The notes beneath the pieces were generated by a model, which saw only the letters and a list, made by a program, of their open reading frames with translations, was not told where the DNA came from and did not search any database. Of a DNA stretch of 15,982 bases, positions 9,693 through 11,968 are shown piece by piece. The position numbers were made by a program, and so were the translations under genes. This stretch comes from a virus: UHGV virus genome UHGV-0177145; one strand, written 5' to 3'. Within the stretch, counting starts at the first letter, position 1. Every line of letters begins with the position of its first letter.

Positions 9693-9992
9693 TTAATCTG
9701 CCAGCCTTAAATTAAAATTAACACCAAATTTTTCGCATACTTCCAACATAAACTCAAGAGAGACATTACCAGTGAGATTGATTATGTTGGATACACGAGC
9801 CTGAGAGATGCCACAAATTTTAGCAACTTGCTCTTGAGAAAGACCTCTGGATTTAATCTCTCTCTTAAAACGATGTGCAACGAAGTCTCTCATTTCGTCT
9901 ACATCCATTGGACAAATATAACTCTCCATTTCAGCCTCTCTGTCAGCCTCCCAATCATCTTGTGGAGCATAAGGGTCAAAAACCTCATTCAT
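9693..9992 (-). CDS. XRE-family helix-turn-helix DNA-binding protein
   Basis: C-terminal LSQEQVAKICGISQARVSNII is a classic XRE HTH. Track ORF starts at a TTG (10022); the ATG at 9990-9992 has an upstream GGAAGAAGAAAG purine tract and overlaps the upstream stop (ATGAATGA). Confidence 0.7.
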   Translation of the reverse strand: MNEVFDPYAPQDDWEADREAEMESYICPMDVDEMRDFVAHRFKREIKSRGLSQEQVAKICGISQARVSNIINLTGNVSLEFMLEVCEKFGVNFNLRLAD

Positions 9993-10197
9993 CTTTCTTC
10001 TTCCGTTTGCGTGAAGTGTCAATCAATGAATCTATGTTTGTAGCTCTAACCTTTTCACGTTCATCGTTAAGATAATCATCAAGAGCCTTTTCAATCTGTG
10101 AATCATCTTGACAGATAACTGTAAAGACTGTAAAGCCGTCTGTGTCATCAATTATCTTACCATAACCGCTTCTGGGATGTAACTTTTTAAGAGCCAT
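9985..10197 (-). CDS. Hypothetical small protein with lysine-rich C-terminus (70 aa)
   Basis: ORF ending SRKRKKKDE, translationally coupled to the HTH gene. Confidence 0.45.
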   Translation of the reverse strand: MALKKLHPRSGYGKIIDDTDGFTVFTVICQDDSQIEKALDDYLNDEREKVRATNIDSLIDTSRKRKKKDE

Positions 10198-10198
10198 A

Positions 10199-10582
10199 TC
10201 AAATACCTGTGCAGCTTCTGTTTTCTAAGAAATACTCAACACCATACATAGCTTTTTGCATCAAATCTTCTTTAAACTGAATACGATGATTGAGCATAGC
10301 CTGTGCATCAATATCATCATGGTGCTTCTCTTTAATATTTGCAGATTGCAGGAAATACTCTGCAAGAACGCGATACTGATAGTCAGTTACCTTATCAGTC
10401 ATCTCTGTTAAAGACTCTTCAGAGATTGGTTTAAGTAACTCACCATTAGCCAAAGCAACACCTTTAACAATCTGACAAGTGTCTTCTGGAACACCTGATA
10501 AGTCCACATTTGGAAGTTCTGTTGCATTGACTGGTAAATTCATTGCCATAATCATTGCAGCGGCTAATAAAATCTTTTTCAT
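10199..10582 (-). CDS. Secreted or periplasmic protein with Sec-type signal peptide (127 aa)
   Basis: MKKILLAAAMIMAMNLPVNA/TELP: positively charged n-region, hydrophobic core, AxA-like cleavage site. GAGG ribosome-binding site 7 nt upstream. Confidence 0.6.
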   Translation of the reverse strand: MKKILLAAAMIMAMNLPVNATELPNVDLSGVPEDTCQIVKGVALANGELLKPISEESLTEMTDKVTDYQYRVLAEYFLQSANIKEKHHDDIDAQAMLNHRIQFKEDLMQKAMYGVEYFLENRSCTGI

Positions 10583-10626
10583 AATGACCTCAAAGTTATA
10601 TTAAATTTTGTATTACGTTGAGTATA

Positions 10627-10674
10627 AAAATAAGCTATAACACCTGACTTGTCAATAGATTTTATAGCTTATTT
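10627..10674 (-). promoter_or_regulatory. Perfect 13-bp inverted repeat bracketing a putative proximal promoter
   Basis: AAATAAGCTATAA (10628-10640) / TTATAGCTTATTT (10662-10674), 21-nt spacer. On the minus strand the spacer holds TTGACA (10650-10655), 17 nt upstream of TATTTT (10627-10632). Confidence 0.3.
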
Positions 10675-10828
10675 GGCAGATTTTTTATAAGGCTACTGCC
10701 ATCCTTCCATACCAAACCACACCCTGCCAAACCAGAGCCTACTAGACCATACCGAACCAAACATCACTTAAAAACCCTTTTAAAAGACTCTTAAGTGATG
10801 TTGGTGAGTACCTGTTGGTTTATGCTGC

Positions 10829-10858
10829 TCAGTATACTCACCAAATTTTCTATGTCAA
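10829..10858 (-). promoter_or_regulatory. Strong sigma70-like promoter just downstream of the ligase stop codon
   Basis: Minus strand: TTGACA (10853-10858), 16-nt spacer, TATACT (10831-10836). A 10-bp inverted repeat TTGGTGAGTA (10801-10810) / TACTCACCAA (10835-10844) overlaps the -10 and the predicted start site. Confidence 0.45.
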
Positions 10859-10864
10859 CAACTT

Positions 10865-11968
10865 TTATTCGTAGTCTCGAATAACTAACCCAACAGGGAA
10901 CTGTAAAGACCCCTTACGAGTCATCTTCTGGAACTGTACCGTTAAAGGTTTCCCGATAAACTCTTCAGGGTGTTCAGCAAGATACTGTTTCTTCTCATGA
11001 GTAGTCTTCCATGAGACATCTACAAATACGTTAGGAAGAGTCTCTACAACGAACTTACCATGACCCCGCTTATCAGTCTTTACACCAGTCACTTTAAACT
11101 CTTCAGTGTGCATCTTCTTGTGCTTAATCAAGAAGTATGAACGGTGACAACACTCATAGAAGGAGTCTTCAGAGATTGAACGGTACATTGCACCTTCAAA
11201 CTTAGCTTCAACCCACTTATCATGAGCTTCATCAAACTCTTCCCAAGAATTTACACGACGAGACTTAACAGGGACAACTTTACAGCCATCTCTAAAGTCA
11301 TTCAATGGTGAAGTCTCAATGATATCTCTACGCTCAGGCCACGTCTTAGTGCTGTCACAGATATCATACCAGTAAAACTTGAGTAGGTGTCTGTCAGGAT
11401 TGTCTTCATTTTTAATCATGGAGACGATATCTTCTAAGTCCCACCCATGAGCATAAATCTCTCCATCAAATTCATCAACATCTTTGTGGAGCCTTAACAT
11501 TGCCATAATGTCAGGTATTAGTTCAGTAGGGATTTTGTAAACAGTATTCTCACGAGAATATGCTGTAAATACACTGCCAATACTCAAGTGCCTTGAAATT
11601 CTACAACGAACACCATCAAGTTTCGGTTGAGCATCAGCAGGGAACTTCAGGTACTTTGCATGGCTAACCTTTGCAGCATCATGAGCAAGCTGTACACCAA
11701 CTTTCTCAGTATTCTGTGCAGACTCTTTTGTGTAAGCATAACCTTTACGGTCAACTTGCTTTTTATACTTTGCAGCAACTTCAAAGAGAGCTTGCTGTTC
11801 AGCGTTACGCTCATTCTTTTTACCGATGTTTTTAGGTTCTGCTGTATACTCTTCAAACATCATCTTGCCATTTTCTTTACCGTAGGTTGTAATAACTTTG
11901 TCACCTACAGCGACGCATGACCAGACGTTAAAAGAGCCATCTTTATTTTGTTTGTACAGTGTTGTCAT
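10865..11968 (-). CDS. lig: ATP-dependent DNA ligase
   Basis: KLDGVR adenylation motif (KxDG, motif I); size (367 aa) in the range of T7-type phage ligases. Confidence 0.88.
   Translation of the reverse strand: MTTLYKQNKDGSFNVWSCVAVGDKVITTYGKENGKMMFEEYTAEPKNIGKKNERNAEQQALFEVAAKYKKQVDRKGYAYTKESAQNTEKVGVQLAHDAAKVSHAKYLKFPADAQPKLDGVRCRISRHLSIGSVFTAYSRENTVYKIPTELIPDIMAMLRLHKDVDEFDGEIYAHGWDLEDIVSMIKNEDNPDRHLLKFYWYDICDSTKTWPERRDIIETSPLNDFRDGCKVVPVKSRRVNSWEEFDEAHDKWVEAKFEGAMYRSISEDSFYECCHRSYFLIKHKKMHTEEFKVTGVKTDKRGHGKFVVETLPNVFVDVSWKTTHEKKQYLAEHPEEFIGKPLTVQFQKMTRKGSLQFPVGLVIRDYE

Follow-up and report, generated by a model that had tools for sequence, protein, structure and literature searches.

The 282-nt gap behind the DNA ligase gene of a Felix O1-like phage encodes, as far as its sequence can tell, a vrRNA gene of the VIPR type, complete with promoter, leader, repeats, and 3' cap. 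The letters of its guide agree with vipr of sister phages much better than chance would allow. Such a match is seen in three independent lineages that carry a single array and in no other array. Both vipr and its partner vap have apparently been lost from this phage lineage, which leaves the vrRNA an orphan (for the genome as a whole, the absence rests on a close relative, ph2-2). Our preferred reading, to which we give a probability of roughly 60%, is that the gap holds an orphan SUSP1-type vrRNA with an anti-vipr guide, which would borrow the Vipr protein of a co-infecting rival. Throughout, "the window" is the whole stretch of DNA that was analysed (15,982 nt), and positions are given within it.

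VIPR (Viral Interference Programmable Repeat) was described in 2026 as a system of non-contiguous RNA-guided DNA recognition and as a possible ancestor of the CRISPR RAMP effectors. It consists of Vipr (a small RAMP protein), Vap, and vrRNAs (bioRxiv 10.64898/2026.04.26.720920, 10.64898/2026.04.26.720927). A vrRNA, as described there, has 9-16 YNNGG repeats in which GGY is conserved and NN is hypervariable, followed by an invariant 3' pseudoknot tail. The companion cryo-EM work shows one Vipr protomer per repeat, with GGY sequestered. The NN pairs read double-stranded DNA, with every third target base skipped; the complex blocks transcription, and silencing is abolished when GGY is perturbed (bioRxiv 10.64898/2026.04.26.720920, 10.64898/2026.04.26.720927). 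The model phage is Escherichia phage SUSP1, and the SUSP1 clade is type II. Its vrRNAs are expressed as ~100-nt RNAs that co-purify with Vipr, and small-RNA sequencing found one array upstream and three downstream of the genes. The preprint's guide set for this clade comprises 41 guides; 18 of 20 SUSP1-clade guides are reported to converge on a satellite with which the phage has a baseplate gene in common, and some vrRNAs of the P. fulva clade target other VIPR systems. The pipeline was seeded on Vipr proteins, and targets were sought in E. coli chromosomes and plasmids, not in lytic phage genomes. The main text of the VIPR preprint makes no mention of orphan vrRNAs, Felix O1, Felixounavirus, or phages without vipr (bioRxiv 10.64898/2026.04.26.720920, 10.64898/2026.04.26.720927).

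Results

The gap and its promoters and hairpins

The source phage belongs to the genus Felixounavirus, and the region has matches of 80-99% identity in 260 phage records. The original prediction, made from the DNA letters of this phage, had singled out the gap for its length, for a near-consensus promoter, and for three inverted repeats, and we recovered all of these. The gap spans 10583-10864, between the ligase ORF and a 127-aa ORF. The promoter (TTGACA-16-TATACT at 10858..10831) agrees with sigma-70 at 11/12 positions and is the top match of the whole window. Inverted repeats were detected at 10801-10810/10835-10844, 10760-10780/10782-10802, and 10628-10645/10657-10674. The features of the region, from the ligase gene onwards, are:

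10865-11968, minus strand: DNA ligase ORF, with Pfam ligase domains
10831..10858, minus strand: promoter P1, TTGACA-16-TATACT, the best match in the window, with a predicted start near 10823
10801..10844, strand-neutral: perfect 10-bp inverted repeat, TTGGTGAGTA / TACTCACCAA (10 nt, 100%), from the -10 box to about +22 of P1
10760..10802, minus strand: leader hairpin of about 20 bp, outer stem CATCACTTAA / TTAAGTGATG, from the repeat finder and the MFE fold
10704..10768, minus strand: tandem GGYNN tract of 13 units with a 5-nt period, behind P1 and the leader hairpin
10763-10709, minus strand: guide of 11 units, NN = TT TC AT CT AG CT TT AG GT TT AT
10724..10763, minus strand: eight in-register guide units whose NN match vipr nt 362-384 of sister phages (TTaTCtATgCTaAGtCTgTTaAG) with a 1-nt skip
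10675..10708, minus strand: H-type pseudoknot tail of 34 nt, GG-AAGG-AT-GGCAG-TAG-CCTT-ATAAAAAAT-CTGCC
10623..10674, minus strand: perfect 13-bp inverted repeat, AAATAAGCTATAA / TTATAGCTTATTT, then a U-run, from the repeat finder (fold z = -3.6)
10627..10655, minus strand: promoter-like P2, TTGACA-17-TATTTT (10/12), which putatively serves the 127-aa ORF and the following genes
10199-10582, minus strand: 127-aa ORF, from the ORF list, which bounds the gap on its other side

P1 is invariant across five aligned relatives, and its sequence also precedes the first array (vrRNA1) and vipr in SUSP1-type loci that have vipr, including the SUSP1 contig (L016). The perfect repeat at 10801-10810/10835-10844 has a single substitution among five aligned sequences with and without vipr. 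It would act at the DNA level, because only its downstream arm would be transcribed, and Vap or a nearby XRE-type regulator (9693-10022) might use it as an operator. More generally, the two palindromes that lie across promoters (10801-10844 and 10628-10674) may serve as operators or as a terminator.

The leader hairpin has z = -3.5 (MFE), its 3' arm holds the first two pentamers (AGTGA and TGTTT), and arrays in relatives are preceded by the same leader sequence; we consider it a candidate processing site. At the other end, the hairpin at 10623..10674 looks like a terminator or a processing hairpin of the vrRNA. A consensus terminator scan of the window made no call there, and the 10628-10674 hairpin encloses the -35 box of P2. 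Both P2 hexamers are unchanged in the aligned relatives. A tRNA scan and Rfam found no tRNA in the gap and no family at the gathering threshold (the single Rfam match, with E = 0.78, is a chance one).

Two relatives, JK55 (L002) and Bas63/JohannRWettstein (L003), have an extra insert of ~150 nt between the ligase stop and P1 (alignment columns 25-175). The Bas63 annotation places a 48-aa ORF (bas63_0038) there. The insert is missing from the window and from most relatives.

A tandem array of pentamers

On the minus strand, 10768-10704 reads AGTGA TGTTT GGTTC GGTAT GGTCT AGTAG GCTCT GGTTT GGCAG GGTGT GGTTT GGTAT GGAAG. The units of this tract have the form (G/A/T)-G-Y-N-N, and two of the 13 are junction units that flank the 11 guide units. 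The word GGTNNGGTNNGGT, at no more than one mismatch, has 7 overlapping matches in the gap and 9 in the window, versus 1.8 expected, and 0/200 shuffles reach 9. The C+A-rich repeats that had been described on the plus strand are present, but their description as words of 8-13 nt does not hold: the true regularity is the 5-nt GGYNN period of the minus strand. The earlier reading had overlooked this period, along with the pseudoknot tail (10708-10675) and two genes that relatives carry within the gap.

We compared 76 distinct arrays from 29 loci (24 IMG/VR contigs, public records, and the window). The unit consensus of the raw arrays is G 77% (never C) / G 98% / T 82% + C 10% / N / N, and the third position is 99% pyrimidine once the constant junction units are trimmed. 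As scanned, with junction units counted, the arrays have 8-21 units with a mode of 12-14. Among relatives that are 95% identical, the array is hypervariable: NN are wholly different and the number of units differs too, between flanks that are nearly invariant. The window tract has what the published vrRNA repeats have, namely the conserved GGY, the hypervariable NN, and a number of units within 9-16. In the 86-kb genome of the closest relative, ph2-2, this locus is the only one with a GGYNN array.

The non-canonical units of the window are UGU, AGU, and GCU, and C at G2 (as in GCU) is seen in ~2% of units. GCTCT (10734-10738) and AGTAG (10739-10743, minus strand) are common to all nine members of the guide family that is described below, so these two deviations are old and are not recent lesions.

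Several other readings of the tract were tried and rejected. Against a protein-coding role stand 5-nt indels among relatives and stop codons inside the repeats. A CRISPR array would have direct repeats of 24-48 nt and unique spacers of similar length; the repeat finder gives only a 5-/15-nt periodic family and short chance pairs. (The tandem repeat finder reported nothing at the gap.) The 5-nt unit, its variable content, and the lack of an Rfam family also speak against an iteron origin, which would have sites of 17-22 bp, and against a leader or riboswitch that is known to Rfam.

A covarying pseudoknot caps the repeats

The repeats run into a tail (10708-10675) that corresponds to the invariant 3' pseudoknot tail of published vrRNAs. 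Its first stem (S1) pairs AAGG (10706-10703) with CCTT (10692-10689), its second (S2) pairs GGCAG (10700-10696) with CTGCC (10679-10675), and loop 3 is A-rich. Four natural versions of the tail share one geometry across relatives. The S1 versions are GTAG/CTAC, GTGG/CCAC, and AAGG/CCTT; the S2 versions are AGTCTCA/TGAGACT, AATCGGA/TTCGATT, GGTAG/CTACC, and GGCAG/CTGCC.

Covariation in related phages had been named as a check on the structure of this region, and it came out positive: both tail stems are kept, with compensatory changes. Across 15 distinct tails, 9/9 pairs are formed in 100% of cells and 8 pairs have compensatory changes, while sliding the tail partner by 1-3 columns, as a control, lowers pairing to 31-42%. 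These 15 tails were first collected with a pairing filter, and the geometry was re-checked on the 76 arrays without the filter. It lies directly 3' of 73/76 arrays; two of the three arrays without a clean tail are artefacts of array splitting, and the third has a single mismatch.

We identify the element as a vrRNA because of its GGY/NN period with a number of units in the published range, its covarying tail, and its promoter, leader, and tail of SUSP1 type. One of the roles first proposed for the gap, a small non-coding RNA from a strong promoter, names the correct class of element: a vrRNA's promoter, leader, and repeat body are all there, and the SUSP1 homologues are reported to be expressed and bound to Vipr. 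The other proposals, a regulated structured leader of an mRNA and iterons or an origin, are unsupported in view of the 5-nt GGY/NN period, the dinucleotides that bear a target, and the covarying pseudoknot. Our search of the literature on the origins and transcriptomes of Felix O1 turned up nothing useful.

We also set aside a TRAP-like platform for a ring protein, an origin of the R-loop or switch-region kind, two-tier G-quadruplexes, a primase landing pad, and a Rho rut site on the plus strand. The VIPR architecture accounts better for the period, the variable NN, and the cap. It likewise accounts better for the tract than do leader motifs that resemble boxA or bind cold-shock proteins (GTCTTTTAA).

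Relatives have vipr and vap at this locus

Relatives carry 1 to 5 GGYNN arrays in the gap, and in 17/24 IMG/VR contigs (18/25 with one added contig), genes for proteins of 195 and 146 aa lie between the arrays. We take the 195-aa protein to be Vipr because it is 97% identical to the phiSUSP1 protein and because the residues with functional roles in the cryo-EM work (H17, K33, R138, and R179) are conserved columns of the Vipr alignment. Its RAMP fold was confirmed. The 146-aa partner gene, vap, is phrog_5926. In the SUSP1 contig (L016), one array is upstream and three are downstream of the two genes. Of ~260 phage records with this locus, 118 encode a protein that is at least 90% identical to Vipr.

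A complete type II system would include vipr next to the vrRNA, and vap. The gap of the window is too small to accommodate genes. Neither the window nor ph2-2 has vipr, in the gap or elsewhere, and both also lack the 146-aa gene. In tblastn searches of the window and the full ph2-2 genome, the Vipr and Vap proteins had nothing better than E ~1, and for a profile HMM of Vipr against all six-frame ORFs of the window and ph2-2, the best E was 0.11. The window is only 16 kb, so the absence of vipr from this phage rests on ph2-2, which is the closest complete relative (86 kb; in the 1-kb stretch that was compared, its identity to the window is 96%). Seven IMG/VR contigs have loci that lack both genes, and these are not among the contigs that encode Vipr.

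Some relatives have 2-3 arrays in a gap without vipr or vap: BPS17W1 (L001/L025), JK55 (L002), Bas63/JohannRWettstein (L003), UAB_Phi87 (L007), L010, L015, and L021. The IMG/VR contigs among these multi-array loci are missing from the list of Vipr-encoding contigs.

The reading rule and the satellite in yecE

By way of the phage baseplate gene, we found an ~11-kb element integrated in yecE (the yecE/DUF72 locus) in 474/5426 complete E. coli genomes. This is evidently the satellite of the VIPR preprint.

L031 6170-17365, also L032, L033, and L034, in E. coli chromosomes: yecE satellite, four variants compared

The genes of the satellite encode a Dam-type methylase, an HTH protein, small ORFs, a tape measure protein, a baseplate protein, and a serine recombinase, and its baseplate gene is 91-94% identical to the phage gene at the nucleotide level over 544 nt. 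The four copies contain neither vipr nor vrRNA arrays.

We scored the 76 arrays against the four satellite variants with the NN spaced by 0-3 skipped bases and a cut-off of at least 80% NN match. The numbers of arrays that reached the cut-off at skips of 0, 1, 2, and 3 were 0, 19, 0, and 1. With 19 matches at a skip of 1 and 0-1 at other skips, the rule of a 1-nt skip holds independently.

Perhaps the window guide would direct a borrowed Vipr against the Felixounavirus satellite, as the majority of its relatives' vrRNAs do, with a 93-aa gene next to an HNH gene as its target. The guide's best satellite score is in this gene (18/22, at L032 5988-6019), with the wobble bases as the skipped ones, and the same site in L033 (6100-6131) scores 17/22. 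Also, the unit deletion that is specific to the window raises the match relative to the guides of sister phages. But NN-order shuffles reach 18/22 on the satellite in 1.5% of trials, and the matched units are non-contiguous. Five other alleles, one of which represents the most common band of identity (90-95%), score 15-17/22, and the sister guides score 14-15/24 on four alleles. We give a satellite target hardly any credence and treat the match as chance.

The satellite does appear among the targets of the multi-array loci without vipr, where several guides match it strongly (24/26 in L007 and 28/34 in L021). Guides directed at the satellite in phages without the effector are not accounted for by the anti-vipr idea.

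The guide matches vipr of sister phages

Over 8 consecutive units, the window guide matches 16/16 bases of sister-phage vipr. Overall it matches 18/22, which is above the preprint's threshold of 80%, with the 1-nt skip of a vrRNA target. Among all the loci compared, the guide reaches 18/22 at this vipr site (nt 362-384) and at the 93-aa gene of the satellite. The guide family consists of the window and eight other phages (nine records). The guides of ULIM9, LNA1, and DE7 have one more unit (GGTTT), which gives 10 units and 20/20 on vipr nt 362-390. Those of ph2-2, D1-2, NJ12, and RPN213 have two NN mismatches to vipr, and the guide of L27 has one mismatch and an extra unit. In the window guide, the deletion of one unit puts the last three units out of register, leaving 8 in-register units instead of 10. 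The window copy is the most degraded of its family and may be weakened even if the family is active.

The exact 10-unit pattern is present in 8 of 2.9 million IMG/VR contigs, all of them from Felixounavirus with vipr, and in the five of these contigs that were also scored for guide matches, it falls at the vipr site. Across prokaryotic genomes that total 596 Gb, the pattern turns up once, which is the chance level. The full 11-unit pattern of the window has no exact match in IMG/VR. If vipr were borne by hosts, those copies might be the real target; no nucleotide-level match to vipr was found in 5426 complete E. coli genomes.

Could the orphan RNA be a decoy that soaks up the rival's Vipr protomers regardless of its NN letters? 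The strong promoter and the intact GGY scaffold and cap would suit such a role. A decoy has no need of a target, but in three lineages the agreement of the NN letters with vipr is far too good for chance, and we consider this idea very improbable.

Three single-array lineages match vipr

We compared every array to the satellite variants, to the vipr-vap cassettes, and to the ph2-2 genome, using a local score and a control in which the order of NN was shuffled. All four single-array loci without vipr (the window, ULIM9, L006 of the EC6 type, and L013 of the Si3/Felix O1 type) match vipr, with scores of 16-20 versus a shuffled maximum of 10-12, and none of these four orphan guides matches the satellite variants above the control. 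No other array matches vipr (0/72, made up of 0/57 from phages with vipr and 0/15 from multi-array phages without it); many of these 72 match the satellite. The ph2-2 genome is matched by no array above the shuffled controls, including the arrays of relatives with vipr. The three families of anti-vipr guides are:

vipr nt 362-390, sense: window/ULIM9 guide, 9 records, 16/16 (window) and 20/20 (ULIM9), skipping codon position 1
vipr nt 469-497, sense: Felix O1/Si3 guide, 35 records including Felix O1 itself, 20/20, skipping the wobble position
vipr nt 34-65, antisense: EC6 guide, 3 records, 18/18, skipping the wobble position

These families, with 47 records in total, are unrelated in sequence and are aimed at different sites in vipr.

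A quite different history is that the orphan is a non-functional relic. Recombination between the upstream array and the last downstream array would have deleted vipr, vap, and the other arrays, and what was left would still be transcribed since P1 serves downstream genes. The window unit is indeed a hybrid: its P1 and leader are those of the upstream vrRNA in relatives with vipr, and its tail is of the type found on their last downstream vrRNA. Units have been gained and lost and NN have drifted within the guide family, the array has diverged roughly as much as the genome around it, and the fraction of canonical GGY units is slightly lower in orphans, though not significantly (65% versus 77% in phages with vipr, p = 0.10). 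On the other hand, chance retention does not predict that vipr is matched by each of three unrelated guides, from three lineages with one array apiece (20/20, 20/20, and 18/18), and by 0/72 others. Furthermore, the orphan lineages are widespread and old, as the 47 records with Felix O1 among them attest, and the pseudoknot and the GGY period are intact. We regard the relic as the chief rival of our reading but believe that it is unlikely.

Self-targeting spacers are associated with degraded CRISPR-Cas loci, and something similar might have happened here: in an ancestor with vipr, an anti-vipr guide would have shut off the phage's own vipr, which then decayed and was deleted, and the guide would be the footprint of this event. 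Such self-silencing would account for the exclusive link between anti-vipr guides and missing vipr. However, none of the 57 arrays from the sampled genomes with vipr has an anti-vipr guide, three independent self-targeting events would be required, and it gives no account of why the anti-vipr guide alone was kept while the other arrays were lost. This scenario seems quite improbable to us.

Discussion

Our preferred reading remains that of an orphan RNA that works on a rival's Vipr. The P1 transcript would consist of the leader hairpin, then 11-13 GGYNN repeats, and then the 3' pseudoknot cap. In a co-infected cell, this RNA would be loaded onto Vipr supplied by a rival that carries vipr, and the loaded Vipr would be directed onto the rival's own vipr-vap operon, so that the operon is repressed and the system is shut down.

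Several observations sit poorly with a weapon. The window guide has lost a unit, its sisters have NN mismatches or an extra unit (which are compatible with drift), one unit has GCU, two units have A or U at G1, and the guide skips codon position 1. Also, as no array of the relatives matches the ph2-2 genome, this reading does not explain what the owner gains from silencing a rival's vipr.

It is tempting to generalize. The solitary vrRNAs of Felix O1-like phages without vipr could all be counter-weapons that act through the rival's Vipr on the rival's vipr, with guides acquired independently in three lineages, which would imply a process that writes NN from encountered DNA. We advance this only tentatively and would bet slightly against it. 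In any case, three independent anti-vipr guides sharpen the question of where vrRNA guides come from.

The element resembles the vrRNAs of the SUSP1 clade in its GGY/NN pentamers, whose number is in the reported range, in its 3' pseudoknot cap, in its homologous promoter, leader, and tail, and in having a target that is read with a 1-nt skip. It differs in that the window has a single vrRNA with no vipr or vap, at the locus or in the closest genome, and in that its target is the vipr of sister phages instead of the satellite.

Three other systems are worth comparing. Medvedeva et al. 2019 reportedly found mini-CRISPR or orphan arrays that are borne by viruses, use Cas in trans, and target related viruses. 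These too are guide-only viral loci without effector genes, and their guides match close relatives of the carrier, but the chemistry of the guide and the protein family are different; in our case it is presumably the rival virus that provides the protein, and the guide is directed at the gene for the effector. RNA anti-CRISPRs (Racr) are phage-encoded mimics of repeats that sequester Cas proteins, and they are decoys without a programmed target. Like a Racr, the orphan vrRNA is non-coding, comes from a phage, and would occupy an effector of the RAMP type and so subvert it; unlike a Racr, it carries a specific guide sequence. Finally, the RNA that binds Bacillus TRAP has triplets spaced by 2-3 nt that wrap around a ring protein, and its spacers carry no information. 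It shares the conserved triplet with a 2-nt variable spacer, the ~11 units, and the single protein subunit per unit. The protein is unrelated, and TRAP served only as a working analogy.

This kind of element is already known from the two 2026 preprints. What the text of the VIPR preprint does not mention is the orphan state and the specificity for vipr, that is, a guide-only locus, in genomes without the effector, that is aimed at close relatives' gene for the effector. Should the guide be active, guide RNAs alone would be selectable as weapons against such a system, and they would be RNA-guided counterparts of anti-CRISPRs that re-program the enemy's effector rather than block it. About 47 sequenced Felix O1-like phages would carry one, including a classic phage for typing and biocontrol, and this would influence how phage cocktails that combine Felixounaviruses with and without vipr turn out. 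The anti-vipr idea can be tested directly with the published Vipr reporter assay.

Variation at the vipr site

The guide of the window and ULIM9 does not skip the usual wobble position, and because it skips codon position 1, it reads the wobble base. We compared vipr nt 362-396 across 18 copies (L035-L052; 16 distinct alleles), and 10 of the 18 copies differ from this guide. One of the 10 matches the guide better elsewhere. In the nine whose best match is at nt 362-396, all of the changes are synonymous changes at the third codon position (TTT>TTC, AAG>AAA, GCT>GCG, TAT>TAC, and GGT>GGC), and this pattern of substitutions would be compatible with escape.
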